Below are positions 4,636 through 49,014 of a stretch of DNA of 64,000 bases, piece by piece; position 1 is the first letter of the stretch, and each line of letters begins with the position of its first letter. Both the position numbers and the translations under genes were made by a program. Where the stretch lies: the NCBI GenBank assembly GCA_035631035.1, contig DASQJL010000096.1, positions 1,234-65,233 on the forward strand. Reading direction: 5' to 3'. A model generated the notes under the pieces. It saw nothing but the letters and a program-made list of their open reading frames with translations, did no database searches and had not been told where the DNA came from. The stretch comes from Candidatus Binatia bacterium. Lineage in GTDB: Bacteria > Eisenbacteria > RBG-16-71-46 > SZUA-252.

Positions 4636-7489
4636 CCGCGCTCCCCGGGGCCGTGACCGACCCCGCCACCACCAGGGCGTAGCCGGAGGCGGGGCGCAGG
4701 TAGGCGCGCGCCGCCGCGGCGGCCGCCTCGCGCGTCACGCCGCGCACGATCGAAGTGTAGCGCTCGATGTAGTCCAGCCCCAATCCATAGACCTCCGCCG
4801 CCACCAGCTGCGAGGCGACGCCGGCGTTGGTCTCGAGACGAACCGGGAACACCCCGGTCAGATAATCCTTCGCGTCCTCCATCTCCGCGTCGGTCGGCCC
4901 CTGCTCCGCCATGCGGCGCACCTGCTCGAGGATGCTCGCGACCGCCCGGTCGGCGTTCGCGGGATTCGTCCCGGCGCGGATCGAGAGCGGCCCCGCGCCG
5001 ATGCCGGCCGCGAACGAGGAATAGACCCCGTACACCAGCCCCTGCTCGTCGCGCAGGCTGTTCATGAGCCGGCTGGAGAGCGAGCCCCCGCCGAGGATGT
5101 AGTTCATCACCATCGCCGCGTCGTAGTCGGGCGCGGTGCGGGGAATGCCGGGCACCGCGTAGACGACGTCGGTCTGCGATTTTCCCCTCATCGGCACGCG
5201 CAGCTCGAGCGTCGTCGCCGGGGCCGCCGCCTTCGGAACCTGGAACGGCGGCACCGGATCGAGCTTGGCCCATCCGCCGAAGGCGGCCCGCACCAGCTCC
5301 AGCGCGCGCTTGGGATCGACGTCGCCGACCAGGACCAGGATCGTGTTGTTGGGGCCGTAGTGGCTTCGGTGGAACGACGCCAGATCCTCGCGCGTGATCG
5401 CGCGGAGCGTGCTGTCGGTGCCCATCGGGTTCACGTGGTAGGGGTGCCCCTCGGGATACAGGAGGCCGTTCGCCCGGCGCGCCGCCACGCTGGCCGTCGA
5501 ATTCTCGGCGACCTGGTAGTCGGTGATCCGCTCCGCGCGGATCTTCTCCATCTTGTCCGCGGGGAAGGCGGGGTGCTGGAGGGCGTCGGCGAGCACGTCG
5601 AGCACCGTCGGGAGATCAGCGGAGAGCATCGTGGCCGAGATCGAAACCGTCTCGGACCCGCCGTCGAACGAGAGGTGGGCGCCCGCGCCCTCGATCGTCT
5701 CGGCGGTCTGGAGCGCCGTGCGCTTCGCCGTGCCCTGATCCAGCATCGCGGCGGTGAATCCGGCCAGCCCGCTCCGATCCGGCGGATCGTAGATGCCGCC
5801 CGCCTTGACGAGGCCCTGGAGGGAGATGGTCGGATTCGCCGGGTTGTTCCGCACGATCAGCGTGAGCCCGTTGGGGAGAACCGTGCGGTCGGGAGCCGCC
5901 CCGTGCATCACGCCGGCCGGCATGGCGGCCGCGCCCGGAGCGGCCGCACCCGTCCCACGCTCGTCCCGAGCCGCGGAGGCGGGAAGGCCGGGGAGCGCGC
6001 CGGCCGCCTCGTCGGGTCGGTAGTGGTCGACCCACCGCGAGGGGCCCGCCGCTCCGGCCGCCTCGGCGGGAGCGCCGTTCCCGGCCTCGGCCTGGTCTTC
6101 CGGCGTCGGGTCGTACCAGCCCACCGTGCGCGAGTTCTCCGTGAGATAGGTGCGCGCCACCCGCATCAGGTCCTCGGCGGTGACCGCGCGGACCCGCTCC
6201 ACATAGGTGTCCAGATAGCGCCAGGAAGCCACGGTGTTGTAGTACCCCAGCTGCTGCGCCAGGCTCCGGATCGAATCCTTGGAGTAGATGAACGAGGCCT
6301 CGACCTGCTTCTTCGCCCGCGCGAGCTCCTGGGGCGTGACCGGCTGGGTCTTGAGCCGATCGACCTCGGCGAGGAGTCCCGCTTCCAGGCGGTCCAGCTC
6401 GACCCCGGGCGCCGCCGTCGCCTGCGCGTTGAAGAGGAGCGGGTCGTGGCCGTTGTCGTTGCTCGCGTCCACCTCGGCCGCGAGCTTCTTCTCCACCAGC
6501 GCCTGGTAGAGGCGCGAGGTCTGGCCGTGGCCCAGGATGATCCCGAGCACGTCGAGGGCGTAGGTGTCGGGATGCGTCACCGCGGGATTTCTCCAGGCCA
6601 CGAGCAGGTAGCGGGTGTCGCCCGGCTTCCGGATCTTGAAGCGGCGCTCACCCATCTGCGGCGGCTCCACCGTGGTGACCGGCGGCGGCTCGGTTCCCTT
6701 CGGGACCGCTCCGAAGTACCGCTTCACCATCGCGAGGGCGGCCGGCGCGCTCACGTCGCCGACGACCACGACCGTCGCGTTGTTCGGCATGTAGTGGCTC
6801 TTGTAGTAGTCGCGGATCTGCTCCGTGCGGATCTGCTCGACGTCGGTGCGCCAGCCGATGGTGGGCCAGTGGTAGGGGTGCGCCTTGAAGGCCTGCGCCA
6901 TCGCTTCGAGATAGAGGGCGCGATGCGGATTGTCCTCGTTCCGCTCCAGCTCGGAGCGGACGACGGTCATCTCCAGGCGGTGCTCCTCGTCGGGGATCGT
7001 CGCGTGAATCATGCGGTCCGCCTCGATCTTCATCGCCATCTCCAGGCGGTCGCTCGCAAGGACCTCGAAGTAGGTCGTGTAGTCGAGCGACGTGCCCGCG
7101 TTGAACGTGGCGCCGTTCTTCTGGAGCAGCCGGGAGATCTCCCCCTTGCCGTAGGTGGGCGTCCCCTTGAACATCATGTGCTCGAGCAGATGGGAGATGC
7201 CGGTGATGCCGGCGCTCTCGTTCCGGGAGCCGACCTTGTACCAGACCATGAAGGCCGCCACCGGCGCCGTGTGAACCTCCTGGATCAACACCGTGAGCCC
7301 GTTGTCGAGGGTCGTCTCGAGCACGGGCGACTTCGCCGCTGGGGCTGTCATGGAACGTTTCCCTTTAGAAGTGGCGCCGGCGGAAGCCGGCGGTGCCTGG
7401 ATCGCCGTGAATGCGAGCAGGGAGAGGAGAAGTCCCGCTCCGCAAAGCCGTGGTGTGGCGCTCGGTCGAACGTTCGAAACCTGCCGCAT
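4625..7489 (-). CDS. Fused double-M16 (pitrilysin/insulinase-family) zinc protease; N-terminal half catalytic
   Basis: I trimmed the 1343-aa track ORF to the in-frame ATG at 7489 (MRQVSN..., signal peptide). HxxEH is present as GISHLLEHMMFKGT, followed by a second M16-like half without the motif. The region upstream of 7489 is antisense to the next gene. Confidence 0.88.
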   Translation of the reverse strand: MRQVSNVRPSATPRLCGAGLLLSLLAFTAIQAPPASAGATSKGKRSMTAPAAKSPVLETTLDNGLTVLIQEVHTAPVAAFMVWYKVGSRNESAGITGISHLLEHMMFKGTPTYGKGEISRLLQKNGATFNAGTSLDYTTYFEVLASDRLEMAMKIEADRMIHATIPDEEHRLEMTVVRSELERNEDNPHRALYLEAMAQAFKAHPYHWPTIGWRTDVEQIRTEQIRDYYKSHYMPNNATVVVVGDVSAPAALAMVKRYFGAVPKGTEPPPVTTVEPPQMGERRFKIRKPGDTRYLLVAWRNPAVTHPDTYALDVLGIILGHGQTSRLYQALVEKKLAAEVDASNDNGHDPLLFNAQATAAPGVELDRLEAGLLAEVDRLKTQPVTPQELARAKKQVEASFIYSKDSIRSLAQQLGYYNTVASWRYLDTYVERVRAVTAEDLMRVARTYLTENSRTVGWYDPTPEDQAEAGNGAPAEAAGAAGPSRWVDHYRPDEAAGALPGLPASAARDERGTGAAAPGAAAMPAGVMHGAAPDRTVLPNGLTLIVRNNPANPTISLQGLVKAGGIYDPPDRSGLAGFTAAMLDQGTAKRTALQTAETIEGAGAHLSFDGGSETVSISATMLSADLPTVLDVLADALQHPAFPADKMEKIRAERITDYQVAENSTASVAARRANGLLYPEGHPYHVNPMGTDSTLRAITREDLASFHRSHYGPNNTILVLVGDVDPKRALELVRAAFGGWAKLDPVPPFQVPKAAAPATTLELRVPMRGKSQTDVVYAVPGIPRTAPDYDAAMVMNYILGGGSLSSRLMNSLRDEQGLVYGVYSSFAAGIGAGPLSIRAGTNPANADRAVASILEQVRRMAEQGPTDAEMEDAKDYLTGVFPVRLETNAGVASQLVAAEVYGLGLDYIERYTSIVRGVTREAAAAAARAYLRPASGYALVVAGSVTAPGSAVGP

Positions 7490-35466: not shown

Positions 35467-36217
35467 GGATCGCCTCTTCCAGGAAGGGCCGCGGCGTCTC
35501 CAGGCGGCGCGCCAGATACTTCACGTAGGCATCGCGATGCTCGGCGGCCGTCGCGAAGGGTGCGTCGACCAGCCAGGTGTCGGGGACCAGCGAGACGATG
35601 CGCCGCAGCTCGTCCGGAGTGACCCGCTTGTCCAGCGCGGCATCGGCTTCCTCCATCCGGGAGGCCGCGGGAAGGAGCACGTGGTCGCGAATCATCGGGA
35701 AGGGATCGCGGCTCCGCTCCAGCCAGTGCTCCCACGTGTGGTGGAAGTAGAGCGCCGATCCGTGGTCGATGAGCCACGTGCGCCGGTGCCACACGAGCAG
35801 GTTGGTATTGCGTGGCGTCCGGTCGATGTTCGTGACGAAGGCGTCGAACCAGACCACCAGGGATGCGAACCCCGGATCCGGCTTCTCCGCCACGGGATCG
35901 AACATGATCGAGCCCGGCAGGTAGTCGAGCGCCAGGTTCAGCCCGCCGCTCGCGCGGATCAGGTCCTGGATCTCCGGGTCGGGTTCCGTGCGCGCGAGGT
36001 CGGGGTCCAGCTCCACGAACACGATCTCCGGAACGGGAAGCCCGGCGGCGCGCGCGATCTCGCCGCACACGAGCTCCGCGATCAGCGCCTTGGCGCCATG
36101 TCCCGCGCCGCGGAACTTGAGCACGTACATGCCGTCGTCGTCGGCTTCGACGATCGCGGGCAGCGAGCCTCCCTCGCGGAGCGGGGTCACGTAGCGCGTG
36201 GCCGCGACCGTGCGCAT
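35453..36217 (-). CDS. Short HipA-like (HipA_C-type) Ser/Thr kinase-family protein
   Basis: 254 aa. Gly-rich YVLKFRGAGHGAKAL. Catalytic-loop-like VTNIDRTPRNTNLLV, followed by LIDHGSALYF (D.H..N / DxG analogues of HipA). Confidence 0.6.
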   Translation of the reverse strand: MRTVAATRYVTPLREGGSLPAIVEADDDGMYVLKFRGAGHGAKALIAELVCGEIARAAGLPVPEIVFVELDPDLARTEPDPEIQDLIRASGGLNLALDYLPGSIMFDPVAEKPDPGFASLVVWFDAFVTNIDRTPRNTNLLVWHRRTWLIDHGSALYFHHTWEHWLERSRDPFPMIRDHVLLPAASRMEEADAALDKRVTPDELRRIVSLVPDTWLVDAPFATAAEHRDAYVKYLARRLETPRPFLEEAIRARA

Positions 36218-36234
36218 CTAGAGGGCGCGCCGCG

Positions 36235-36705
36235 TCATCGGCCCAGGAACCTGTCGATCTGCCGGCGGTGCCGCAGCACGTGCACGATCGCGTGCTCGAA
36301 GAGCTGCTCGAAGTCATAGATCGGTCCCCAGCGAACGGTCATCTTCATCTCGGTGCATTCCTGGTCCGTCATCTCCCAGTGGCCCTCGAGGGTCTCGGCC
36401 ATGTAGGCGAGCGTCTTCCGCATCTCGGCCGGCGTATCGGCGCGGCGGACCGGTTCGTCCCACCGGACCACGGGCTCCTTCTTCCAGTGCGTCCGCATGT
36501 AGTTCGCGTAGCCGTACCCGGCTCGGACCACGTGCCTCATGATGGTCTGGATCGAGCGGCAATCCTCGTCCTGGGTCGTGGTGTCGCGGACCCGATCGAA
36601 CTCCTCATCCGAGATCCCCTCCAGAATCCGGATCAGCTCCGCCGAGGCGCGCTCGTACTCGTCCATCAACGCGCCGACGGGTCCCTTCCTGTAGGTCTTG
36701 GCCAC
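36235..36705 (-). CDS. DinB-family protein (second copy)
   Basis: Trimmed to GTG 36705, preceded by GGAGG at 4-nt spacing (alternative ATG 36666). Contains IMRHVVRAGYGY and C-terminal FEHAIVHVLRHRRQI. Confidence 0.7.
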   Translation of the reverse strand: MAKTYRKGPVGALMDEYERASAELIRILEGISDEEFDRVRDTTTQDEDCRSIQTIMRHVVRAGYGYANYMRTHWKKEPVVRWDEPVRRADTPAEMRKTLAYMAETLEGHWEMTDQECTEMKMTVRWGPIYDFEQLFEHAIVHVLRHRRQIDRFLGR

Positions 36706-36901
36706 GGCTCCTCCGCAAGGTGGTGTGTGGGCGGCGATTCTGGCCCAGGAACCGGCCGGAAGCCAAGGGCTGCTTCCAGCCATGGCCCTTCCCGGCGGTG
36801 AAGAATTCTCTGAGCGCGCCGATACCTTGGTAGCGCGCCGGGGGCCGGGGCTCCGCGTGGCGCGCCCTCGCCGCGACCCACCCTGCAACCGGAGCGAAAC
36901 C

Positions 36902-38173
36902 GTGGGCAAGAAGCACCGCTCGTTCAGGATATCGCTGCCCCCCGCCGTGGGCCGGATCGCGAAGGGGGCCCTCAAGAGCAAGCTCCTCATGGTGCTCGTG
37001 GGACTCTTCGTGCTCGGGTTCATCGCGGGAAAGCAGTCCGAGCCCGATCCCACCGGCGCGCCGTTCGAGGAGTTGTTCGAGAACCTGAGCGTCGTATCCT
37101 ACCGCGACTCTCCCTCGGACTCGGCCTCGCACTTCATGGTCGAGCTGTCCGCGCGCGGCAAGGTCTTCCGCGAGTACGACGTGGACGAGCAGCGTTTCGT
37201 GGAGCCCGCCCGCGGCCGCGACTACCGGCGCATGATCGGCGCCACTCGCTATGAGCCGCTCGTCGTGCGCGGCCACGTGGACCGCGGCTTCTGGCTGGAG
37301 CTGTCCAACCAGAAGAGCCCCGAGATCCTGCCCGACCAGTTCCAGGAGATGTACCAGACCACGCTGGACTACGTGAAACCGGTGTCGGTCATCGCCTCGA
37401 TCGCGGGGACGCTCTCCGGCTATTCCGTCGGATACCGCGCCGGCACGTGGGGCACCTCGCTCGCCAATCCCGCCGTGCAGAAGCGGGTGCTGTCGACCGC
37501 GGGCGTCGGGCGGATGATCACGCGCGAGGCCTGGCGCCGCGTGCTCCTGGAGCCCGTGGTGATGGGGCACGAGAGCGACCCCGAGCGGTTCGCCGCGGCG
37601 CGCGAGACCCAGCGGATCTACACGAACTTCTTCCGGCTCGCGCTGGCCGACAGCAACGACTTCATCCATGACGAGGCCCGGCGGCTCGACGCCGCGGGCT
37701 ACACGCGCGAGGCGATCGCCATGCTGGAGTTCACCTACTCGGCGCTGCGAGCGGCCGACGACACCGTGCACCTCGAGAGCGCCGATTTCCGGGCCGTCGA
37801 GGAATGGGCCAGCCTGATCGCGCACCGCGGCCACTGGGCGCCCACGTCGATCCCCGCATCGGGCGAGGCGCGCGTGCGCTACCTGGGGACCCTGGCCTAC
37901 TACGGCCTGACGCCGGTCGCCGACGACGCGCATCGGGTCTGGGTCGGGCCGCGCGTGCTGGTGAAGGATGGCGAGGAGGAGGGGTTCGTGGCGGACGAGA
38001 TCCCCTCGATCCGCGCCGCGTGTCCCTTGACGTGGCAGGACTGGCTGCGCCACGACACCACCGGGATGAGCAGCAACGAGTGGACGGCGCAGTGGATGAG
38101 GGAATCGAAGCAGCTCGCGCAGATGGTGAGTTTCGGAAAGCAGGTCGTGCGGCAGATGCAGCCCGCGCGGTAG
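36902..38173 (+). CDS. Membrane-anchored hypothetical protein (single N-terminal TM, ~380-aa soluble domain)
   Basis: Trimmed to GTG 36902 (VGKKHRSF...LLMVLVGLFVLGFIAG). Balanced, non-junk composition; I recognised no motif. Confidence 0.55.
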   Translation: MGKKHRSFRISLPPAVGRIAKGALKSKLLMVLVGLFVLGFIAGKQSEPDPTGAPFEELFENLSVVSYRDSPSDSASHFMVELSARGKVFREYDVDEQRFVEPARGRDYRRMIGATRYEPLVVRGHVDRGFWLELSNQKSPEILPDQFQEMYQTTLDYVKPVSVIASIAGTLSGYSVGYRAGTWGTSLANPAVQKRVLSTAGVGRMITREAWRRVLLEPVVMGHESDPERFAAARETQRIYTNFFRLALADSNDFIHDEARRLDAAGYTREAIAMLEFTYSALRAADDTVHLESADFRAVEEWASLIAHRGHWAPTSIPASGEARVRYLGTLAYYGLTPVADDAHRVWVGPRVLVKDGEEEGFVADEIPSIRAACPLTWQDWLRHDTTGMSSNEWTAQWMRESKQLAQMVSFGKQVVRQMQPAR

Positions 38174-38184
38174 GGCCCCGTCCG

Positions 38185-38568
38185 CTACGCGTCGCCCGTG
38201 GGAATGATCCCACGTCGCTCCACCATCAAGATCACGGTGCGCTCCGGGGCGCGCGTCCGGTGCACCACGCCCCTGGGCACCACGAATCCCTGCTGCGGCG
38301 ACAGCTCCACCGTGCGGCTCTCCAGGTCGATCAGCAGCCGGCCCTCCACCACGAAGAAGAACTCGTCCTCCTCGTCATGCTTGTGCCAGTGGTATTCCCC
38401 TCGGATCACGCCGAGTCGCACGACCGAATCGTTCACCTGGCAGAGGGTCTGGTTGTACCAGGGATGGGTGCAGGCGGCGGCGAGCGCGGAAACGTCGATC
38501 AGCTCCAAGGGCTCATAGCGCACGTCCATGTGCGTGTCGTAAGGGTAGTTCTTGGGGTCGTCGGCCAT
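38185..38568 (-). CDS. Cupin-domain protein
   Basis: Trimmed to ATG 38568. Cupin motifs GEYHWHKHDEEDEFFFVVEG and GFVVPRGVVHR. Divergent from lexA. Confidence 0.8.
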   Translation of the reverse strand: MADDPKNYPYDTHMDVRYEPLELIDVSALAAACTHPWYNQTLCQVNDSVVRLGVIRGEYHWHKHDEEDEFFFVVEGRLLIDLESRTVELSPQQGFVVPRGVVHRTRAPERTVILMVERRGIIPTGDA

Positions 38569-38628
38569 GCTCCACTCCTCGGGAAAAGGACAAGAACGGC
38601 TGAGGATACTCCTCGGCTGAGCCGCCCC

Positions 38629-38658
38629 CTTGACAACTGCACAAACGTTCACTATCTT
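38629..38658 (+). promoter_or_regulatory. lexA promoter with embedded candidate LexA operator (SOS box)
   Basis: cTTGACAacTGCACAAACGTTCAcTATCTT. -35 at 38630-38635, a 17-nt spacer, -10 at 38653-38658, dyad at 38638-38651. 26/30 identical to 41781-41810. Confidence 0.6.
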
Positions 38659-38669
38659 CCTTTTCAGCC

Positions 38670-39428
38670 ATGAAGAAGAAGCCCAACCCCAGCGGGGCCC
38701 GGGGAAAGCGGCCCCCCACGCGCACGCCCTCTCCCGAGGCGATCCTCTCCTACATCGAGGAGTCGCTTCGCGATACGGGCCGCCCGCCCACGATTCGGGA
38801 AATCGGAGCCGTCTTCGGGATCGCCTCCACCAATGGAGTCCGCTACCACCTCGATAAGCTGGAGCGGGAAGGCAGGATCCGGCGGGATCGATTCACCAGT
38901 CGAGGCATCGAAGTACAGTTGGCCGGCGGGCGCGGCGCGACGCATATGGACACCTTGCCCTCCATGTCGCCCGCGTTTCGCCGAGCCAACGTTCCTCGAG
39001 GGACTGTGGCTGGCGTCCCCGGTGGCCTTGAACGGGATCTCCTTGAAGTCCCCCTCCTGGGCCACGTCGCCGCCGGCGCGCCCCTCCTCGCCGAAGAGCA
39101 CATCGAGGACACCCTGACCCTCGACCCGGCGATGGTGCGGCCCGGCGGCAAGCACTTCGCCCTGCGGGTGCGCGGCGACAGCATGAAGAACGCCGGGATC
39201 CTGGACGGCGACGTGGTCATCGTCCGGCACGACACTCCCGTGAAGAGCGGCGAGATCGCCGTCGTGCTGATCGGCGACGAAGCCACCGTGAAGCGCTTCT
39301 TTCCGCGGCGCGACAAGCTCCTGCTATTTCCTGAAAACGAAGACTACGAACCGATCGAAGTGCGTCCGGCCGATCCCGACGTGCGGGTGGCGGGCAAGGT
39401 GGTGGGTGTATTTCGGAGGCTCGGCTGA
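38670..39428 (+). CDS. lexA: LexA repressor (with basic N-terminal extension and expanded linker)
   Basis: Winged-helix TIREIGAVFGIASTNGVRYHLDKLEREGRI. Cleavage site HVAAGAP. Ser in RGDSM and Lys in TVKRF. Confidence 0.92.
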   Translation: MKKKPNPSGARGKRPPTRTPSPEAILSYIEESLRDTGRPPTIREIGAVFGIASTNGVRYHLDKLEREGRIRRDRFTSRGIEVQLAGGRGATHMDTLPSMSPAFRRANVPRGTVAGVPGGLERDLLEVPLLGHVAAGAPLLAEEHIEDTLTLDPAMVRPGGKHFALRVRGDSMKNAGILDGDVVIVRHDTPVKSGEIAVVLIGDEATVKRFFPRRDKLLLFPENEDYEPIEVRPADPDVRVAGKVVGVFRRLG

Positions 39429-39724
39429 TGCTCCATGCGCGATCGTTTCCATCCGAGAGAGACGGCTACTTCATGATCGAGTCCATCCACGACCCCATCG
39501 AGGTCATCACCATGTTCTCCGGCGGAACGATGAAGCCGATCCGCTTCCGCTGGAAGAACAAGACCGTGCGCATCGCCAAGGTGACGGGGGACTGGGTCCG
39601 GCACGAGGGGGAGAACAAGGTCCACTACTTCGCGCTTCTCGCCGACAACGCGGACTACTACGAGATCCGCTACGACGCGCGCGAGATGACCTGGCAGCTC
39701 ACGCGGGTGTGGATGGAGGGGTAG
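39428..39724 (+). CDS. Hypothetical 98-aa protein translationally coupled to lexA
   Basis: The ATG overlaps the lexA TGA (TGATG). GGAGG lies 8 nt upstream. Ordinary composition (KPIRFRWKNKTVRIAKVTGDWVRHEGENKVHYFALLADNADYYEIRYD). I recognised no family. Confidence 0.6.
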   Translation: MLHARSFPSERDGYFMIESIHDPIEVITMFSGGTMKPIRFRWKNKTVRIAKVTGDWVRHEGENKVHYFALLADNADYYEIRYDAREMTWQLTRVWMEG

Positions 39725-40193
39725 CCCCGCTCCACGTCCACGAGCCGAGCAGGCGCTCACGCCGGCGCCCGGGCCAGCGGCGGAACTCCTCGGACGGAAC
39801 GAACCCGAGCAGGCTGTCGCAGTCCTGGCGCCGGATGAAGCGGACCCACCCCGACAGCGGTTCCCGAACGAGAACGACACGGCCGGCGAAGATCTCCTCC
39901 AGCGCTCCGATGACGGCGCCGAGGATGGCTCCATCGGACGCCGCGCCCCAGACCAGGATCTTCTCGGCGGGACCGGGAGGGACGCCGTCGTCGTAGGCGA
40001 TCGTCGCCCCCTCCTCGTAGAGGTCGGCGCGAAGCTCATGTCCGGGGCGGCCCGGCACCGGCAGACGGACCGACATGTGGACCGTCATGGAATCCACGCT
40101 CGGGTCCAGCTCCGGATGAAGGGCCCGTAGACGCGCGGCCAGGAGCGTCGCGACCCGGCGGGTCTGCTCGGTCAGGGTGAGCGCGTGCTTCAA
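39699..40193 (-). CDS. Hypothetical protein
   Basis: Trimmed to TTG 40193, which overlaps the HAD stop (TTGA). 164 aa, no motif recognised. The start is uncertain. Confidence 0.45.
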   Translation of the reverse strand: MKHALTLTEQTRRVATLLAARLRALHPELDPSVDSMTVHMSVRLPVPGRPGHELRADLYEEGATIAYDDGVPPGPAEKILVWGAASDGAILGAVIGALEEIFAGRVVLVREPLSGWVRFIRRQDCDSLLGFVPSEEFRRWPGRRRERLLGSWTWSGATPPSTPA

Positions 40194-40939
40194 GGGATCG
40201 CGCCCTCGTCGACATGCCCCGGGGCATGTCGCAGCTCGGACAGGCTGCGCACGATGCGATCGGGGCGTACGTCGCTGCCCGATGGGATCCCCGCGCCTCC
40301 TCGGTCGATCCAGATGGCGTAGATCCCGAGGCGCTGCGGGGCGGCGACGTCCCATTCGAGATTGTCCCCGGCCATCCAGGTCTCGTGCGGCGCGGCCTGC
40401 AGCTCGTCCAGCGCGATCCGGTACACGCGCGGATCGGGCTTGCCGTAACCCAGCTCCCCCTCGATCAGAACCAAATCGAAGAGCTCGGCCAGCTGAAAGC
40501 GCACCACCTTGCTCCTCTGGGCAGCCGCGGCGCCGTTCGTGAGGAGGGCCAGCCTGCGGCCGCTCTGCTTGAACCAGCGCACGGTCTCGATCGCATCCTC
40601 CAGCGGCTGGAGGCCCAGGTGCCGCTGGGCGCGATAGTGCTCCGCGATCTTCTCGGCCAGCTCCGGCGACTCGAGCCCGATCTCCACGAGCGAAGCGCGT
40701 ACGACCTCCCGCCGCGCGGCATCCAGGTCCAGGCGCCCCTCCCGATGGCGCTCGGGATCGGACCAGAACCACGCGCGCGTTTTCTCGATGACGGCGTGGA
40801 GCGCGGAGGGATCGACCGCGCCCAGCTCGTCGCGGTGGGCGCGGCAGGCCTCCAACCAGCAGTGGGAGACGTTGCCGCTGTCGTCGAGGATCGTGTCGTC
40901 GAGATCGAGGAGGACGGCCTTGGGAAGGGCTCCGGTCAC
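40190..40939 (-). CDS. HAD-superfamily hydrolase
   Basis: Motif I VLLDLDDTILDD. Motif II LLTNG. Motif IV-like MAGDNLEWD. Confidence 0.85.
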   Translation of the reverse strand: MTGALPKAVLLDLDDTILDDSGNVSHCWLEACRAHRDELGAVDPSALHAVIEKTRAWFWSDPERHREGRLDLDAARREVVRASLVEIGLESPELAEKIAEHYRAQRHLGLQPLEDAIETVRWFKQSGRRLALLTNGAAAAQRSKVVRFQLAELFDLVLIEGELGYGKPDPRVYRIALDELQAAPHETWMAGDNLEWDVAAPQRLGIYAIWIDRGGAGIPSGSDVRPDRIVRSLSELRHAPGHVDEGAIP

Positions 40940-40949
40940 GGGCGCCGTC

Positions 40950-41750
40950 TCAAGCCCTGCTCCCGCGCACGGCCCACGCGCGCGCGATCAGGTGGATCGA
41001 GCCGTCCGCCTCGACCGGCAGCCGCGAGCGGATTCGGTCCCGCAGCGCGCCCCGGCGCGCCTCTTCCAGCGACATGGCGTAGCCCGGCGCGGGGCCCTGG
41101 CCGCCGAGGAAGGGGGACCAGTAGTCGTCGAAATCGCGAAACACGGTCGGGACGTCGATCGCACGCGTCCGGACGTCGCTCAGGTGCCCTCCGGAAAATA
41201 CATCGGCGAGCGCCTCGGGGTGGCAGAGCGGGAATCGGGTCCCTTCGTCCAGCTCGCGGGCCGCGGGATCGAGGGCGATGGCGGCGTCCCAGAAATGCCG
41301 GAGCAGCTCCATGCGCCCCGAGTAGTCCCAGACATAGGCCGCGGCGACGCCTCCGGGGCGGAGCGCGCGAGACATCTCGCCCACGGCGAGTGCCGGCTCC
41401 GGAACGAAGTTGAGGAGCAGGGCGGAAACCGCTGCGTCCACCGAGGCGTCCTCGACCGGAAGCGATCGGGCGTCGCCCACCTCGAACGTCGCGACCGTGC
41501 GCTCCCCGATGCGCGCACGGGCGTAGTCGACGTACGCGGGGGAGGCGTCGATGCTCCGCACCGACCGGGGGCTGGAGCGATCGAGAAGGGTCTGGGTCAA
41601 GGCACCGGTGCCGCACCCGACGTCGAGCCAGGCCCTGCCCGGCGGCACGTCGAGCCACGCGAGGAATTCGGGGGCCACGCGACGGCTCCATCGGCCGACG
41701 AAGGGCTCGTAGAGGTCGCCCGCGGCCCAGACGTCTTCGGGGGTCATCAC
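40950..41750 (-). CDS. Class I SAM-dependent methyltransferase
   Basis: Motif I WLDVGCGTGALTQ. 266 aa. Divergent from dinB. Confidence 0.85.
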   Translation of the reverse strand: MMTPEDVWAAGDLYEPFVGRWSRRVAPEFLAWLDVPPGRAWLDVGCGTGALTQTLLDRSSPRSVRSIDASPAYVDYARARIGERTVATFEVGDARSLPVEDASVDAAVSALLLNFVPEPALAVGEMSRALRPGGVAAAYVWDYSGRMELLRHFWDAAIALDPAARELDEGTRFPLCHPEALADVFSGGHLSDVRTRAIDVPTVFRDFDDYWSPFLGGQGPAPGYAMSLEEARRGALRDRIRSRLPVEADGSIHLIARAWAVRGSRA

Positions 41751-41780
41751 GACAGTTTACTTGCCCCTTGCGGGCGCCAT

Positions 41781-41810
41781 CTTGACAACTGCACAAATGT
41801 GCAATATCGT
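41781..41810 (+). promoter_or_regulatory. dinB-operon promoter with embedded candidate LexA operator (perfect palindrome)
   Basis: cTTGACAacTGCACAAATGTGCAaTATCGT. -35 at 41782-41787, a 17-nt spacer, -10 at 41805-41810. The palindrome TGCACA-AA-TGTGCA lies at 41790-41803. Confidence 0.6.
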
Positions 41811-41882
41811 AGTCGTGTGACCTGCTTGAGGCGCCTCGCCAGTCCTCGATCGTGGAACGCAGAGCCCTGGGAGTGACCTTCC

Positions 41883-43154
41883 GTGCGGATCGTGGCGCAC
41901 ATCGACATGGATGCCTTTTTCGCCTCGGTCGAGGAGAAGCTGAACCCGCGGCTCGCGGGAAAGCCGCTGGTCGTGGGAGGGTCCAGGGACAGCCGCGGGG
42001 TCGTCTCGGCGGCCAACTACGCGGCGCGTCCGTACGGGATCCACGCCGGCATGCCGATTGCCGAGGCGGTGCGCCTCTGTCCTGAAGCGGCCTTCATCGA
42101 AGGCGACCCCAGGAAGTACGTTCACATCTCTCTCCAGATCCTCGACACGCTGAAAGACTTCACCCCCATCGTCGAGCCGTTCAGCATCGACGAGGCGTTC
42201 CTCGACCTGACCGCGGTGGAGCGTCTTCGTCCTCGAACGGAAGACGGCGACCACGAGACCTGCCTGAACGCGGCGATCCCGCTCGCCCAGGCGATCCAGC
42301 GCGCGGTGCATCGGCGCGTGGGGCTGACGGCCTCGATCGGGATCGCCCCCAACAAGTACGTCGCCAAGATGGGGAGCGGCCTCCGGAAGCCGAACGGGCT
42401 CACGGTGCTCTCGATCCGCCGCTTTCGCGAGATCTTCGAATCGAAGCCGGTCAACGAGCTGTGGGGGATCGGAGAGAAGACGGCGGCTTCGCTCGCCACA
42501 CTCGGCATCCGCACGGCGGGGCAGCTCGCCCGCTTTCCCCGGGAGTTCCTGACCTATCATTTCGGGCTGAGCGGCGATCACATGCAGGATGCCGCGCGGG
42601 GCGACGACGAATCCGAGGTGGTGCCCTACTTCGAAGGGGTGCCGGTCAAGTCGATGGGGCACGAGTACACGCTGCCGGAGGACGTGTCGGATCGCGAGCG
42701 CATCCGCGCGCACCTCCTCCGCCTGAGCGATCAGGTGGGCCGACGCCTTCGCGTCGACGGATACCTGGGCCGTGTGATCGCGGTGAAGTTCCGCAATGCG
42801 CGCTTCAAGACCACCATCCGCCAGCGCGCGCTGGCCGAGGTGACCGACGACGAGAACGTCATCTATGGCACCGCGTGCATCCTCCTCGACGAGAACTGGG
42901 ACGGAAAGCCGCTGCGCCTGGTCGGCGTCTCGGTGTCGGACCTCGTCTCGGCGCAGGGATTCCATCAGCACGATCTCTTCTCCACCGACGAGCGCCGGCG
43001 AAGAATGACCGAGGCTGCGGATTCGCTGCGGAACAAGTTCGGGGACGCGGTCCTGGTGCGGGCGGGAGCGCTGGATCATGGCGACACGCAGCGCCTCTCT
43101 CGTGAGGGAGCCAGTCGGAGTCTCGTCCGGGTCCTCGCCGACGAGCGACGATGA
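41883..43154 (+). CDS. dinB: DNA polymerase IV (Y-family)
   Basis: GTG start. IAHIDMDAFFASVEE, SIDEAFLDLT, IGIAPNKYVAKM, LWGIGEKT. Confidence 0.92.
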   Translation: MRIVAHIDMDAFFASVEEKLNPRLAGKPLVVGGSRDSRGVVSAANYAARPYGIHAGMPIAEAVRLCPEAAFIEGDPRKYVHISLQILDTLKDFTPIVEPFSIDEAFLDLTAVERLRPRTEDGDHETCLNAAIPLAQAIQRAVHRRVGLTASIGIAPNKYVAKMGSGLRKPNGLTVLSIRRFREIFESKPVNELWGIGEKTAASLATLGIRTAGQLARFPREFLTYHFGLSGDHMQDAARGDDESEVVPYFEGVPVKSMGHEYTLPEDVSDRERIRAHLLRLSDQVGRRLRVDGYLGRVIAVKFRNARFKTTIRQRALAEVTDDENVIYGTACILLDENWDGKPLRLVGVSVSDLVSAQGFHQHDLFSTDERRRRMTEAADSLRNKFGDAVLVRAGALDHGDTQRLSREGASRSLVRVLADERR

Positions 43155-44143
43155 GCGACCGACCCAAGATCGTGCTCGGCACCTCGGGATGGTCCTTCAA
43201 GGACTGGGTGGGGCCCTTCTATCCGCCCGGCACGAATCGGGCGCACATGCTGGACTACTACGCGGGCGAGTTCCAGGCGGTCGAGGTGAACTCCACCTAT
43301 TACCGGATTCCGCACTGGCGCACGTTCGAGGCGATCGCGAAGAAGACGCCTCCCGGGTTCGAGATCGTCGTGAAGACGCACCACGACATGACGCACCTGC
43401 GCTCCCGCGAGCCCGATCTCTACCGGGACTTCGAGCGCTCCATCCAGCCGCTGCTCGAGGCGGGGAAGCTCACGGGGATCCTCGCGCAATTCCCCTACGC
43501 GTTCCGGCGCACGCGTGAAAACGAGGAGTTTCTTCACGCCCTGCCCGACCTCCTCGGCCGATGGGTACCGCTCTTCGTGGAGTTCCGCCACCGGTCCTGG
43601 GTGGACGACGCCGTCTTTCAGGATCTCCAGAAGGAGGGCCTTGGCTACGTCAGCGTGGACGAGCCGGACCTTCCGGGCCTGGTCCCGCCGATCGCGCGCC
43701 GCACGGGGCCGATCGGGTACGTCCGCTTTCATGGCCGGAACAAGGAGAAGTGGTGGGGGGCCGAGTCGCGCGATCGAGGGGCGCCCGACGGGCCGGGAGT
43801 GAAGCGGGATGCCGCGAAGAGCGCAACGCCCGATGACAGGGGCAAGGCCCGCACGCGAGTCCGCGCCGGTGCGGACTTGGGCCCGCTCTTCAGCGGCACT
43901 CCCGACCATCCCGCCGAGGCGCCACCCTTGCCGGCTCCGCCCGCCTCCGAGCCGCGCACGTCCAGCACGCGCTACGACTGGTCCTACACCGAAGAGGAGC
44001 TGCGCGAGTGGATGGACAAGATCCGTGAGATGACGCAGCAGGCCAAGAAGACGTTCGTCTTCTTCAACAACTGCCACGTGGGGCAGGCGGCGACCAGCGC
44101 CAAGCTGATGCGGAAGCTGCTCGAGGGGGAGGGGATGCTGTGA
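43151..44143 (+). CDS. DUF72 (YecE-like) protein with a ~70-aa low-complexity insertion
   Basis: The ATG overlaps the dinB stop (ATGA). GTSGWSFKDWVGPFYP, VEVNSTYYRIP, EFRHRSW, RYDWSYTEEEL. The insert GAESRDRG...EPRTSST lies between the last two blocks. Confidence 0.8.
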   Translation: MSDRPKIVLGTSGWSFKDWVGPFYPPGTNRAHMLDYYAGEFQAVEVNSTYYRIPHWRTFEAIAKKTPPGFEIVVKTHHDMTHLRSREPDLYRDFERSIQPLLEAGKLTGILAQFPYAFRRTRENEEFLHALPDLLGRWVPLFVEFRHRSWVDDAVFQDLQKEGLGYVSVDEPDLPGLVPPIARRTGPIGYVRFHGRNKEKWWGAESRDRGAPDGPGVKRDAAKSATPDDRGKARTRVRAGADLGPLFSGTPDHPAEAPPLPAPPASEPRTSSTRYDWSYTEEELREWMDKIREMTQQAKKTFVFFNNCHVGQAATSAKLMRKLLEGEGML

Positions 44144-44168
44144 GCCGGGGCGCGAGCGGAGCGGGGAC

Positions 44169-46676
44169 ATGACGGGCGGGGGTGTCGCGGGGGGAAGCGA
44201 TTTCGTCCACGGGCCGGGACTCTTCGACGCCGAGCGCGGCGAGCGCGGGCCGCGTTCCGGCGCTCCCGAGACCCTGGACGAGTACGAGGCGCTCCTGCAG
44301 GCGCTCACCTCGCGGGACCGTCGATTTGTCCACGGTCCCTACGGGCTCCGCCGCCGTCCGAACGAGCTGGTGCACCTGGAGCGCCTCCCGGCCCGGCCCG
44401 CCGTGTACGGCGACCTCGCCGAGCCTCTGCCGCAAGCGCTCCAGGGCGTGCTACGCGAGGCGGGCATCGAACGCCTCTACACCCACCAGGCCCAGGCGGT
44501 GGATCTCGCGCGCTCCGGCGCGAACGTCGCCGTCGCAACGGGCACCGCGTCGGGGAAGTCGCTCGCCTATCACCTGCCGATCCTCGAGCGGCTCCTCCTC
44601 CAGCCGGGCGCCACCGCGCTCTACCTGTTTCCGACCAAGGCCCTCGCCCAGGACCAGCTGCGCGGCCTCCTGCGCTTCGCCGCGGCGTCTCCAGCGCTCG
44701 GGCGCGCGCTCGCGACCGGCACCTACGACGGAGACACTCCCGGCGAGTCGCGCCGCAAGCTCCGCGAGCGCGCCAACGCGATCCTCACGAACCCCGACAT
44801 GCTCCACCAGGGGATCCTCCCGTACCACTCCCGATGGAGCCGGATCTTCTCCAACCTGCGCTACGTCGTGGTGGACGAGATGCATACCTATCGCGGCGTG
44901 TTCGGGTCCCACGTCGCCAACGTGCTCCGACGGCTGAAGCGGATCGCGCGCCACTACGGCGCCGATCCCCGCTTTCTTCTGAGCTCCGCCACCATTCGAA
45001 ATCCGCGCGAGCTGGCGGAGTCGCTGGTCGGGGAGCCGGTCCGTGTCGTGGACGAGGATGGCGCGCCCCGCGGACCCAAGCTCTTCGCGTTCTGGAATCC
45101 CAGACATGCCGGTCCCGAGCAGGCGGGCGCGCGAACCTCCACGTCGATCGAAGCCGAGCGCATCCTGGTCTCGCTCATCCGGCGGCAGGTCGCCTCGATC
45201 GCGTTCACGCGGTCGCGCGTCTCCGCCGAGCTGATCTACCGCTACGCGCGCGAGCAGCTGGAGGAGCGGGGGCGCCGCCGCGCCGAGAAGGCCGAGGGCG
45301 GGGCGGTCCCGCTCGCCGACCGGCTGAGTCCCTACCGCGGCGGCTACCTTCCCGAGGAACGGCGCGCCATCGAGCGCCGCCTCTTCGACGGGGACCTCCT
45401 CGGCGTCATCTCGACGAACGCGCTCGAGCTGGGGATCGATGTCGGGTCGCTGGACGCGGCCGTGCTCGTCGGCTTCCCCAACACCATCGCGAGCACCTGG
45501 CAGCAGGCGGGGCGCGCGGGCCGCTCGCAGGCGCCGTCGCTCGCGATCGTCGTCGCCTACGACGATCCGATCGATCAGTACCTGATGCGCCACCCCGAGT
45601 ACTTCTTCGCGCAATCGCCGGAGAGCGCCGTCGTGGATCCTTCCAACCCCTACGTGCTCGCGTCGCACCTCGCCTGCGCCGCGCACGAGCTGCCGCTCTC
45701 GCGCGCCGACGAGGTCTGGTTCGGGCCGAGGGCCGAGGCGCTCGGGCGCCTGCTGGAAGAGGAAGGCACCGTCAAGTCGCTCGACGGCCTCCGTTACTGG
45801 TCTTCGTCCGAATATCCGGCGGGGCGGGTCAACCTGCGCACCATCTCCGACGACACCTACACCATCCTCGAGCGGAAGCCCGGCGCTCCGGAAGCGGAGG
45901 CGAGGACCCTGGCCACGGTGGACGCGATCAGCGCGCCGGAGCTGATCTACCCCGAGGCGATCTATCTGCACGAGGGAGACACCTGGTTCGTGCGCGAGCT
46001 GGACCTGCAGCAGAAGGTCGCCTACGTCGAGCGGCAGGAGGTGGACTACTACACGCAGCCGGTGCTGGACACGCGGCTGCGGCTGACCGAGACCCGCGAA
46101 ACGAAGCGCTGCGGCGAGTGCGAGGTGGGCCTGGGGACAGCGAACGTCTCCTGGGCCACCGTCGCCTTCAAGAAGATCCGCTTTCGGAGTCTCGATGCCA
46201 TCGGCTATCACCCGCTCGATCTCCCCCGCCTGAACCTGGACACGGTGGCGCTCTGGATCCGCCCCGACGAGTCGGCGCGCGCGGCGGTGCGCGTGAAGGG
46301 GATGAATCCCGCCGAGGGGATGTCGGGACTCCGCAATCTGCTCGTCACGCTGCTTCCGCTTCACGCCATGTGCGACCGGCCGGACCTGGGAGGCGTCCTC
46401 GACAGCGCGAACCTCGGCGAGCAGGCGATCTTCCTCTACGACCGCTACCCGGGCGGGCTGGGCTACGCGGAGCGCGGCTACGCCATCGTGGACGACCTCC
46501 TGCGCGCGACGCTCCGCATGATCGAGGACTGCCCCTGCGAGATCGGGTGTCCCTCGTGCGTCGGCCTCCCGGTCCTCCGCCCCGCGCAGCAGCAGGACTA
46601 CGACCTGCACGGCGGCTGGCCCATCCCGAACAAGGCCGCCACGGAGGCGCTGCTCCGGCGCCTTCTCGGGGCCTGA
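44169..46676 (+). CDS. DExH-box helicase with C-terminal DUF1998-type Cys cluster (MrfA/YprA-like)
   Basis: Motif I ATGTASGKS. Motif II VVDEMHTYRG. Motif VI QQAGRAGR. C-terminal CPCEIGCPSCVG. Confidence 0.85.
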   Translation: MTGGGVAGGSDFVHGPGLFDAERGERGPRSGAPETLDEYEALLQALTSRDRRFVHGPYGLRRRPNELVHLERLPARPAVYGDLAEPLPQALQGVLREAGIERLYTHQAQAVDLARSGANVAVATGTASGKSLAYHLPILERLLLQPGATALYLFPTKALAQDQLRGLLRFAAASPALGRALATGTYDGDTPGESRRKLRERANAILTNPDMLHQGILPYHSRWSRIFSNLRYVVVDEMHTYRGVFGSHVANVLRRLKRIARHYGADPRFLLSSATIRNPRELAESLVGEPVRVVDEDGAPRGPKLFAFWNPRHAGPEQAGARTSTSIEAERILVSLIRRQVASIAFTRSRVSAELIYRYAREQLEERGRRRAEKAEGGAVPLADRLSPYRGGYLPEERRAIERRLFDGDLLGVISTNALELGIDVGSLDAAVLVGFPNTIASTWQQAGRAGRSQAPSLAIVVAYDDPIDQYLMRHPEYFFAQSPESAVVDPSNPYVLASHLACAAHELPLSRADEVWFGPRAEALGRLLEEEGTVKSLDGLRYWSSSEYPAGRVNLRTISDDTYTILERKPGAPEAEARTLATVDAISAPELIYPEAIYLHEGDTWFVRELDLQQKVAYVERQEVDYYTQPVLDTRLRLTETRETKRCGECEVGLGTANVSWATVAFKKIRFRSLDAIGYHPLDLPRLNLDTVALWIRPDESARAAVRVKGMNPAEGMSGLRNLLVTLLPLHAMCDRPDLGGVLDSANLGEQAIFLYDRYPGGLGYAERGYAIVDDLLRATLRMIEDCPCEIGCPSCVGLPVLRPAQQQDYDLHGGWPIPNKAATEALLRRLLGA

Positions 46677-46709
46677 CGCGCGCCGCGCCGCGCGCCGGAG
46701 ACAGGCCCG

Positions 46710-47714
46710 ATGCTCTCCAAGACACTCCGGGACAGGATCGGGGGGCTGCTCCGGCAAGGCGCTCTGGACATTCCGGTCCCGCACGGGAACGGAGATTCGA
46801 ATGGCCATGCGGCCGCGCCCCCGCTGTTCACCCCCGAGCCGCGTCGCCACTTCGTCGCGACGGGGATCGAGGAGATCCTTCCCGGCGGCGTGATCGAGAC
46901 CGCGCAGGGGACCGTCTTCGCGCATGAGCGGCTCTACACCGATCTGGGAGAGCGTCCCGTACCCCTCCTCCGCCGGCTGGCCGAGCTCTGCGCCTACCCC
47001 GGGTGCGCGCCGGAGCGCCATGGAACGGGTCCACACTGGGTCGAGATCCCCGGCGTCGACTGCCCCTATCCCGCGCTCCCGGAACGCGCGCGCGCGCGCC
47101 GGCGCCGGCCGCGGGATCTGGCGGAGGCGACGGGCCTTCACGACCCTCCGGAGCAGGGGATGTTTCGCCGGTTCGGATACCGGCGCGTGCTCTACTTGGA
47201 CATCGAAACGTGCGGGCTCTCGGCGGCGCCGGTGTTCCTGGTCGGGCTCTGCATGGTGGGGGAGCGGAATCTCATCCTGCGCCAGCTCTTCGCGCGGGAC
47301 TACGCCGAGGAGCGGGCGCTCCTGGTGGAGCTCAAGCGCCTGGCCGGGGAGCACGACTTCCTCGTGACCTTCAACGGCAAGGCGTTCGACGTGCCCTTTC
47401 TTCGCGACCGCGCCGTGCATCACCGCCTCGATCCGCCGATCGCGATGCCCCACCTGGACCTGCTCTGGATGGCGCGCCGGCGCTGGAAGGATCTCCTTCC
47501 GGACTGCAAGCTGAAGACGATCGAATGGCGGGTGCTCCGGCGGAGGCGCGCGGGCGACGTGGGAGGATCGGAGATCCCCGGGCTCTACCACGACTACGTG
47601 AAGCGGGGCGAGGCCCACCGGCTGCTTCCGGTGTTCCATCACAACCTGCTCGACGTGGTCGCGATGGTGGAGCTGACGCCGGTCATCTTCGACCCGGATG
47701 TCGGGATCTACTAG
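46710..47714 (+). CDS. RNase H-fold DEDD-type exonuclease (MrfB/YprB-like)
   Basis: Exo I YLDIETCGL. Exo II TFNGKAFDVPFL. Exo III HHNLLDVVAM. Confidence 0.75.
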   Translation: MLSKTLRDRIGGLLRQGALDIPVPHGNGDSNGHAAAPPLFTPEPRRHFVATGIEEILPGGVIETAQGTVFAHERLYTDLGERPVPLLRRLAELCAYPGCAPERHGTGPHWVEIPGVDCPYPALPERARARRRRPRDLAEATGLHDPPEQGMFRRFGYRRVLYLDIETCGLSAAPVFLVGLCMVGERNLILRQLFARDYAEERALLVELKRLAGEHDFLVTFNGKAFDVPFLRDRAVHHRLDPPIAMPHLDLLWMARRRWKDLLPDCKLKTIEWRVLRRRRAGDVGGSEIPGLYHDYVKRGEAHRLLPVFHHNLLDVVAMVELTPVIFDPDVGIY

Positions 47715-47769
47715 AGAGCGGCGACGCGAGCGAGTGATCGAGGAGCGGGAGAGGAGCGGGACGGGGTCC

Positions 47770-48342
47770 CTAGGAGGAGCTTCGCGCGCCCCACATCTCG
47801 CGCGTGAGCTCGAAGCGGAGCGAGCCGGGATCGGACGGGGCCTCGTTCGCCCGCACGAAGCCGTTCTTCTCGAGGACCCGCTGGGAAGGGCGCCCCTCCG
47901 GCAGCGTCTCGGCGACGACGCGGCGTACGCGCGGGTCGCTAAAGGCCCACGCCAGCGTGGCCCCCACCGCCTCCGTGGCCAGCCCTCTCCCGTAGTACTC
48001 CTCCACGATGGAGTACCCGATCTCGATCGTCCCGCGGGGGTCGGGCGGTCCCTTGAAGCCGCCCCCTCCGATCAGGAGCGGCCGCCGCTCCGGCGCGCCC
48101 GCCTGGGGCCGCACCAGCCAGGACCAGCCCAGGAACCCGACCGCCTCGGGGTGCTCCTCCAGCCGGCGGCAGAGGAAGTCGCGCCCCTCCTGGTCGTTCT
48201 CCCCGGGGGGCCAGGCCCCGTGGATCTCGGCCCCCAGCAGACGGGCCAGCTCGGCGCGGTCGGCCGCCTCCGCCCGGGCGATGGCCGGGGTGGAGGCGAT
48301 CAGGAAGAGGCGCTCGGTTTGGAGTTGGATCGACTCGGTCAC
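47770..48342 (-). CDS. GNAT N-acetyltransferase (RimJ/RimL-like)
   Basis: 190 aa. YYGRGLATEAVGATLAWAF and SQRVLEKNGFV. Confidence 0.8.
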   Translation of the reverse strand: MTESIQLQTERLFLIASTPAIARAEAADRAELARLLGAEIHGAWPPGENDQEGRDFLCRRLEEHPEAVGFLGWSWLVRPQAGAPERRPLLIGGGGFKGPPDPRGTIEIGYSIVEEYYGRGLATEAVGATLAWAFSDPRVRRVVAETLPEGRPSQRVLEKNGFVRANEAPSDPGSLRFELTREMWGARSSS

Positions 48343-48453
48343 GACATTATCCTTTCATGCGTACCGAATCTCGGCAACCCAGGAACCACGGCAGGTCCTC
48401 GTTCCATCGAAGTACGATCGCGTCACCCCACAACCCGGAAGGAGTCTTCCCCC

Positions 48454-48990
48454 ATGAAACGCCATCTGCTTGCATTGGGAGTCCTCGCTCTCGCCATGTC
48501 GGCGGCCCCCGCGCTGGCCGACGACGCCGCCACCCCGGCCCAGCCGGACAACGCAGCCCAGATGGCCCAGCCGGCCGCGGCCCAGCACGTGGTCTACGCC
48601 GCCAAGGACCTCAAGTGGATGGATGGCCCCCCGGGTCTCCCCGCGGGCGCCAAGTTCACGGTTCTCGCCGGAAACCCGATGGCGCCGGGGATCTACACGA
48701 TTCGCGCGATGTTCCCCGCCGGCTACAAGATCCCGGCGCACTTCCACGCCGCCGATGAGAACGTCACCGTGATCGCCGGCGAGTTTGGGATCGGCATGGG
48801 CGACGCCCTGGACATGGCGAAGGGCGATGTCATGAGCTCGGGCGGCTTCACGTCGCTTCCGGCCGGCATGCACCACTTCGCCTGGACCAAGAAGGGCGCC
48901 ACGGTCCAGATCCACGGCATGGGGCCGTTCTCGATCACCTACCTGAATCCTTCCGAGGATCCGCGGAACGCCAAGGAAGCCGCCAAGTAA
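48454..48990 (+). CDS. Secreted cupin-like protein
   Basis: Trimmed to ATG 48454 (RBS GGAAGGAG upstream). Signal peptide ALGVLALAMSAAPALA. Contains PAHFHAADENVTVIAGEF and MHHFAW. Confidence 0.7.
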   Translation: MKRHLLALGVLALAMSAAPALADDAATPAQPDNAAQMAQPAAAQHVVYAAKDLKWMDGPPGLPAGAKFTVLAGNPMAPGIYTIRAMFPAGYKIPAHFHAADENVTVIAGEFGIGMGDALDMAKGDVMSSGGFTSLPAGMHHFAWTKKGATVQIHGMGPFSITYLNPSEDPRNAKEAAK

Positions 48991-49014
48991 CCGTATCCGT
49001 CCGTTGACGCCGAA

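Follow-up and report, generated by a model that had tools for sequence, protein, structure and literature searches.

Two 30-nt modules in the window (the whole 64-kb stretch of DNA analysed here, with a GC content of 69.6%) are very probably sigma-70-type promoters with a predicted LexA operator in their spacer. The first module, cttgacaactgcacaaacgttcactatctt (38629-38658, + strand), is located upstream of lexA, and the second one, cttgacaactgcacaaatgtgcaatatcgt (41781-41810, + strand), upstream of dinB. An earlier note on this DNA had proposed that the spacer dyads are LexA operators. This proposal has gained support from three observations: the dyad recurs before lexA in 28 of the 28 relatives with upstream DNA, a second copy is found at split clusters, and the operator co-varies with the LexA recognition helix. 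For the uncultured phylum Eisenbacteria, SOS control would be described here for the first time, on purely computational grounds.

Modules and genes of the window

Re-reading of the sequence gave the two 30-mers as the earlier note had placed them, with 26 of 30 positions identical, four differences and the same first 17 nt. They also have the common architecture claimed for them, i.e., TTGACA, a 17-nt spacer and then TATCTT (lexA) or TATCGT (dinB). In the lexA module, the -35 hexamer TTGACA is at 38630-38635, the candidate operator TGCACAAACGTTCA at 38638-38651 and the -10 hexamer TATCTT at 38653-38658; in the dinB module, the corresponding elements are TTGACA at 41782-41787, TGCACAAATGTGCA at 41790-41803 and TATCGT at 41805-41810. 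The candidate operator of dinB (TGCAC-AAAT-GTGCA) is a perfect palindrome and that of lexA (TGCAC-AAAC-GTTCA) has one half-site mismatch, in agreement with the previous description.

A consensus promoter scan of positions 36000-49000 detected exactly two sigma-70-like sites, namely these modules (10/12 each; 0.8 sites expected). The shared 17-mer occurs at two places in the window even if up to three mismatches are allowed, and none of 100 shuffles gave two or more. As had been noted by eye, there is no third copy of the module in the 64-kb window, and weaker operators were not found there either: 16 two-mismatch matches are present (about 29 expected), none of them with promoter context. The count of the bare 10-position dyad in the 64-kb window is not significant, as it was equalled or exceeded in 32 of 100 shuffles; the modules owe their significance to their context and to their conservation in other genomes. 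A chance likeness of two unrelated intergenic regions, which might be argued from this non-significant count, has a negligible likelihood. The 17-nt identity was reached by 0 of 100 shuffles, and the module is kept in dozens of genomes (see below); the conservation data thus already refute chance. The palindrome was also considered as an RNA hairpin, and this reading was rejected because the dyad is located upstream of the predicted transcription start.

The assignment of the flanking genes as lexA (38670-39428, + strand) and dinB (41883-43154, + strand) holds, with Pfam and NCBIfam scores above cut-off. The lexA gene encodes a protein of 252 aa with LexA_DNA_bind and Peptidase_S24 domains (TIGR00498, 182.7 bits; cut-off 110.95). 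It possesses the Ala-Gly cleavage site (A135-G136), the catalytic Ser/Lys dyad (S171 and K208) and the recognition helix STNGVRYHL (Y59); by these sequence features, together with its wHTH and S24 domains, the window LexA is of the cleavable type. The start of the following gene, encoding a small DUF6504 protein of 98 aa (39428-39724, + strand; Pfam PF20114), overlaps the lexA stop codon (ATGA), and this gene is presumably co-transcribed with lexA. The ATG of lexA is 11 nt past the -10 hexamer, a distance that varies between 8 and 12 nt in the aligned promoters of L001-L028, and is not preceded by a Shine-Dalgarno sequence. Therefore, the lexA mRNA is probably leaderless or near-leaderless throughout the phylum, with a predicted start near 38665-38670 in the window.

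Between the two parts of the cluster, genes for a HAD-family hydrolase (40190-40939) and a SAM methyltransferase (40950-41750), both assigned with Pfam, are located on the - strand. This insert (40190-41750) is outside the SOS unit. Downstream of the second module, dinB (DNA polymerase IV, 423 aa; Pfam IMS, IMS_C and IMS_HHH) begins with a GTG start after GGAG, and its product scores 307.9 bits on the Pol IV equivalog NF002677 (PRK02406; cut-off 256). It is followed on the + strand by a DUF72 gene (43151-44143; Pfam PF01904), which overlaps the dinB stop codon with its start and is syntenic in relatives, and by a gene for an MrfA-like DEAD/DEAH helicase with a C-terminal MrfA Zn-binding domain (44169-46676; Pfam DEAD, Helicase_C, WHD_HRQ1 and MZB; the TIGR03817 match of 759.5 bits is under its cut-off of 874.1). 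The final gene of the cluster encodes an MrfB-like exonuclease of the RNase_H_2 (DnaQ-like) superfamily (46710-47714, + strand; Pfam PF13482) and is syntenic in L110 and L133. The boundaries of these four genes are overlapping or closely spaced. Canonical SOS genes (recA, uvrA etc.) are absent elsewhere in the 64-kb window, and recA was not found in the 1.41 Mb of DNA examined.

The window LexA is longer than typical LexA (252 vs. ~205 aa). It has a basic N-terminal extension (residues 1-22, MKKKPNPSGARGKRPPTRTPSP) ahead of helix 1 and an unusually long linker of ~45 residues (about 83-127) between the DNA-binding and protease domains. Both modules are located in short divergent intergenic regions, i.e., 38569-38670 (~100 nt, on the side of a cupin gene) and 41750-41883 (132 nt, on the methyltransferase side); for the cupin gene facing lexA, the ATG at 38569 is the more plausible start. 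Palindromic operators could also act on these divergent genes (methyltransferase and cupin); no minus-strand promoter was detected in the two regions in the promoter scan of 36000-49000.

Conservation upstream of lexA and splits of the SOS cluster

The window LexA is 62-93% identical to LexA of 29 genomes, nearly all of which are labelled Candidatus Eisenbacteria (Candidatus Eiseniibacteriota in NCBI, a candidate phylum of uncertain placement). The earlier note had named a lack of dyad conservation at lexA of related genomes as grounds for refutation; a TGCAC-N4-GT(G/T)CA dyad is, however, present 28-37 nt ahead of the lexA start in each of the 28 loci of the Eisenbacteria type that have upstream DNA. 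The 29th locus, L029, has just 29 nt of upstream DNA and is outside this count. In the window and in the same 28 of 28 relatives, the dyad sits between the -35 and -10 hexamers of lexA. In a dyad-anchored alignment, CCCCTTGACAAC-TGCACAAATGTGCA-sTATCyT is almost invariant, and the DNA directly 5' of it is unalignable. The information content per column (29 distinct lexA upstream regions) is 1.90 bits for the dyad and 1.64 bits for the module, with 0.22 bits for the 5' flank and 0.55 bits for the 3' flank. Promoter spacers normally drift freely. The stronger conservation of the spacer dyad relative to the -35 and -10 hexamers therefore points to a protein-binding site.

The Eisenbacteria consensus, TGCAC-N4-GTGCA, is a perfect palindrome (29 lexA promoters and 13 second sites, with GCAC/GTGC half-sites). 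Compared with it, the GTTCA half of the window lexA site is a derived state of a small subclade (window and L001-L003), and so is its AAAC spacer, which is shared by the window, L001-L003 and also L004-L006.

The lexA loci L001, L002, L004, L015, L023 and L025 are clearly of the Eisenbacteria type (LexA identity 62-92%, identical module) and were deposited as Omnitrophota, Bacteroidota, Limnocylindrales, Acidobacteriota, Binatia and Hyphomicrobiales; these labels probably reflect binning contamination or mislabelling. In a second group labelled Eisenbacteria (L043, L044, L046), LexA is 45% identical to the window LexA, and two tandem perfect operators, TGCACATGTGTGCA and TGCACAGATGTGCA (5782-5818 / 5812-5848), are located 23 bp apart at a distance of ~140-165 nt on the 5' side of lexA; a TTGACT promoter contains the first operator.

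The presence of two modules in the window can be understood from the gene order in relatives. According to a tblastn map, 12 relatives (L005, L016-L019, L021-L024, L026-L028) possess an unsplit, co-oriented lexA-DUF6504-dinB-DUF72-mrfA cluster with a single module, and in most of them the intergenic gaps are 10 nt or less. At every interrupted cluster, a second full module is present ahead of the distal part. It precedes dinB in the window, in L002, L003, L004, L006, L007, L014 and L029 and in the metagenome contigs L087, L091, L100 and L121, and it precedes DUF6504 in L008, L011 and L013; L129 is a further metagenome contig with a second module at a split cluster. In L091, there are separate modules before DUF6504 and before dinB. 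Among the inserts, at least four mutually dissimilar groups can be distinguished: the HAD hydrolase insert (window, L002, L003, L004 and L006), which is absent from the unsplit relatives; that of L007, L014, L091, L100 and L121; that of L008, L011 and L013, located between lexA and DUF6504; and that of L029, which is unique. As the insert groups are unrelated, the cluster has been split independently several times, the distal genes each time having their own cassette, and the twin modules of the window are there because an ancestral single cluster was split by insertion. These independent splits with a copied cassette represent a natural experiment and argue for selection on damage-inducible Pol IV and the MrfAB-like pair.

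In the Eisenbacteria loci and the window (356 kb of locus DNA plus the window, ~420 kb), sites embedded in a promoter are confined to positions ahead of lexA, DUF6504 or dinB. A mobile element was considered as the source of the copies and was rejected because they occur at SOS genes only. The module might also be a small repeat, or a cassette with a strong constitutive promoter, whose palindrome has no regulatory role and is kept only through being copied along with the promoter; the similarity indeed spans the whole promoter beyond the dyad, and the cassette was evidently copied several times. However, the dyad is its most conserved part (at 1.90 bits per column, across proteins down to 62% identity), the copies within ~420 kb are at SOS-type genes only, the module was not found in viral contigs, and in other phyla the half-sites change along with the LexA helix (see below). 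We thus regard a constitutive cassette as very unlikely indeed, and the dyad as a predicted operator.

Probable link between the box and LexA in Eisenbacteria and other phyla

LexA autoregulates and commonly controls dinB (PMC8565304). The candidate operator is found not only at lexA but also before other DNA-damage genes, i.e., dinB-DUF72-mrfA-mrfB in the window and dinB or DUF6504 in relatives. Variants of the module are present at lexA outside of Eisenbacteria as well. In MAGs of Ignavibacteria, Latescibacterota, Zixibacteria, Calditrichota, Gemmatimonadaceae and Fibrobacteria, the promoter of lexA consists of TTGACA, 2-3 nt, TGMAC-N4-GNGCA and sTAT, and the lexA loci of Thermoleophilia and Firmicutes in the same data set have classical CGAAC-N4-GTTCG boxes.

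The type of box goes together with the recognition helix of LexA. Helix 3 reads SSSTVHxHL in the lineages with Cheo boxes (the SSSTVH helix accompanies CGAAC/GTTCG boxes in L068, L069, L075, L078 and L058) and STNGVRxxL in all lineages with TGMAC-N4-GNGCA boxes. The residue after NGVR is Tyr in 73 of the 75 TGCAC/GTGCA loci (among 105 lexA loci with the module), an association that is inflated by shared ancestry; with the TGAAC, GGGCA and GAGCA variants, Thr, Gln, Ser, Ala, Leu or Met is found there. The association of helix and operator includes mid-GC lineages that had been picked by their DNA pattern alone. Tyr versus Thr/Ser/Gln after NGVR thus provides a testable hypothesis for a shift of LexA specificity by one base.

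In principle, the spacer dyad could be read by another repressor instead of LexA, i.e., by the DUF6504 protein or by another factor, linked to lexA or not. The role of LexA at the dyad is predicted from comparative evidence, and DUF6504 is extremely conserved and almost always present in the same cluster. Nevertheless, another repressor appears quite unlikely for several reasons. The box is present at lexA with no DUF6504 gene in the cluster in L092, L096, L113, L126 and L133 (lexA-dinB-mrfA) and in L201-L204. Its half-sites co-vary with the recognition helix of LexA, and in geometry it agrees with the Cheo-type LexA boxes that Thermoleophilia and Firmicutes of the same data set have at lexA. 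Furthermore, the structural model predicts DUF6504 to be all-beta, with no recognisable DNA-binding fold. For LexA itself as the predicted reader of the dyad, the Fibrobacterota loci L201-L204 are informative, as the box is located there at lexA though the next gene is a TonB-domain gene or a protease gene and not dinB.

A metagenome scan with TTGACNNNTGCACAAATGTGCA revealed at least 83 sites on at least 80 contigs with 37-70% GC. Among the 83 sites listed, the first downstream gene is lexA in ~28-31 cases, DUF6504 in 6 and dinB in 4-5; 23 of these listed sites precede a gene for a small zinc-ribbon protein that heads an operon with a Hel308-like helicase and a Lon protease, 4 directly precede a similar helicase gene, 2 a sigma-70-family gene and 1 an HD-domain gene, and the rest are at contig ends or have no ORF behind them. 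The identical box also accompanies the clusters of mid-GC lineages, which are of the type lexA-dinB-mrfA(-mrfB) or lexA-DUF6504-dinB-DUF72-mrfA, and the motif is therefore not specific to Eisenbacteria. The idea of a lineage-specific LexA motif in the earlier note has thus to be abandoned, as metagenome contigs with GC contents between 37 and 70% bear the identical module and several phyla have variants of it. In fact, one promoter-operator design is common to lexA of several FCB-related phyla, and this extends the line of LexA-box evolution that leads from Gram-positives to Fibrobacter.

In lower-GC lineages (e.g., L083, 4870-10500; L154, 381-6170), the identical module precedes the three-gene operon mentioned above; further contigs with this zinc-ribbon/helicase/Lon operon are, among others, L147, L117, L152, L094, L123 and L137. 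Its first gene encodes a protein of 55-131 aa with a C-terminal zinc ribbon (CP[DE]C..GM[IV]RQG.C..CP.CG[FY].SC) and no Pfam match, and the other two genes encode a Hel308-like DEAD helicase of ~880 aa and a Lon protease of ~830 aa. By its gene order and promoter, this operon looks like an undescribed SOS-controlled module. The same box was detected before the sigma-70-family gene in L105 (983-1004, - strand) and L159 (4908-4929, + strand) and before the gene for an HD-domain phosphohydrolase in L107 (728-749, + strand), all three contigs being from mid-GC organisms.

Comparison with described LexA boxes and a model of regulation

The LexA box of Fibrobacter succinogenes is reportedly TGCNCN4GTGCA, as said to have been determined by Mazon et al. 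(2004, Microbiology 150:3783) by EMSA and footprinting. To this reported consensus, the dinB operator TGCACAAATGTGCA fits in every specified position and the lexA operator with one mismatch. Hence the motif is, contrary to the suggestion of the earlier note, probably not an undescribed one, since the F. succinogenes box as reported equals it. The reported F. succinogenes box and the Eisenbacteria box are both 14-bp palindromes with a 4-nt spacer, located in a lexA promoter and in an FCB-related part of the tree. A protein search that started from a Fibrobacteria LexA gave environmental Fibrobacterota only, and four of these loci (L201-L204) were read. Fibrobacterota MAGs have the TTGACA-NN-dyad-GTAT layout, the GTGCA right half and the STNGVR helix in common with Eisenbacteria. 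However, they belong to another phylum than the window (Candidatus Eiseniibacteriota), their LexA is ~39% identical to that of the window and has Ser rather than Tyr after NGVR, and the left half-site is degenerate (TGTAC, TGTTC, TAACT and TAATT in the four environmental loci L201-L204). In the Fibrobacterota loci L201, L202 and L204 (~40-70 nt before lexA) and in L203, an additional ACTGCAC directly precedes the -35 hexamer. With GTGCAGTA beside the -10 hexamer as its partner, this element gives rise to a long-range inverted repeat, TACTGCAC-N20-GTGCAGTA, which brackets the promoter.

The Cheo (Gram-positive) LexA box of Firmicutes and Actinobacteria is GAAC-N4-GTTC (PMC4951493). The boxes of the window resemble it in their inverted half-sites of 4-5 nt, the 4-nt spacer, the invariant AC...GT core, the overlap with the promoter and the location at lexA and dinB; furthermore, the window lexA site bears one GTTCA half (the right half is GTTC in the window and L001-L003). 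The half-sites of Eisenbacteria are, however, GCAC/GTGC and not GAAC/GTTC, and the helix is STNGVRYHL and not SSSTVHxHL. As half-site consensus and LexA helix differ, the Eisenbacteria box falls outside the strict definition of a Cheo box. The earlier note had described a Cheo-like variant with GCAC/GTKC half-sites; the geometry (5-nt inverted half-sites with a 4-nt spacer) stands, whereas the half-site consensus has to be corrected to TGCAC-N4-GTGCA, the GTTC half being derived. The only other LexA motif from the FCB group that we found in the searchable literature is the one of Balneolaeota, TTACACATATTTTWTACATA, a direct repeat of ~20 bp whose regulon includes lexA, Pol IV, helicase and recA genes (PMC7739468). 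Balneolaeota are likewise an FCB-group phylum with a conventional LexA and with lexA, Pol IV and a helicase in the regulon, but their ~20-bp direct repeat differs from the 14-bp palindrome of Eisenbacteria.

In the searchable literature, we found no work linking Eisenbacteria with LexA or SOS and none mentioning DUF6504, and text searches for the motif gave no relevant match. The Eisenbacteria box is well supported by the comparisons above as an SOS box of the Fibrobacter/Cheo-derived type, i.e., an ordinary kind of control, in a phylum whose SOS system was previously undescribed. Newly added here are the explanation of the twin modules by independent splits, the conserved SOS cluster and the co-variation of helix and operator; the current understanding is not overturned by these findings. 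In Bacillus subtilis, MrfAB are a helicase and exonuclease pair for the repair of mitomycin damage. By domain content alone, the window pair is similar to it (an MZB-domain helicase followed by an RNase_H_2-family exonuclease), but differs in being joined with dinB and DUF72 in a predicted LexA-controlled cluster.

The regulation can be modelled on established LexA biology (PMC8565304). A LexA dimer bound to the dyad would occupy the spacer that separates the two promoter hexamers (-35 and -10) and would exclude RNA polymerase. After DNA damage, RecA-ssDNA filaments would trigger LexA self-cleavage at A135-G136 (with S171 and K208), and the emptied operators would allow transcription of two units, lexA-DUF6504 and dinB-DUF72-mrfA-mrfB. 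The ancestral lexA-DUF6504-dinB-DUF72-mrfA-mrfB cluster was split in the lineage of the window by the opposite-strand hydrolase and methyltransferase genes, and the distal half would have kept LexA control via its own copy of the promoter-operator cassette. We infer LexA binding, polymerase occlusion, damage induction and the transcription units from the computational analysis. The imperfect lexA operator with its GTTCA half may bind LexA more weakly than the perfect dinB operator.

A wider proposal is that lexA-DUF6504-dinB-DUF72-mrfA-mrfB is the whole LexA regulon of Eisenbacteria, without recA and uvr genes, that DUF6504 is an obligatory, so far unrecognised partner of Pol IV and that the cassette is portable and was copied at the breaks. 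Taken together, these points are rather doubtful. If true, such a self-contained cluster would unite translesion synthesis and MrfAB-type repair under one regulon. DUF6504 was proposed as an obligatory partner because its conservation exceeds that of LexA or DinB: the Eisenbacteria loci share 79-98% identity in DUF6504 and 62-93% in LexA. A function of DUF6504 as an accessory factor for Pol IV would be a speculation. We found 19 close homologues of DUF6504 and no sequence relative in the PDB; its AlphaFold model is all-beta (pLDDT 63.6) and gave no Foldseek match with E < 0.5. The gene, which lies between lexA and dinB and is more conserved than both, is also present in L016 (6735-7028), L119 (5411-5659) and L125 (237-485).
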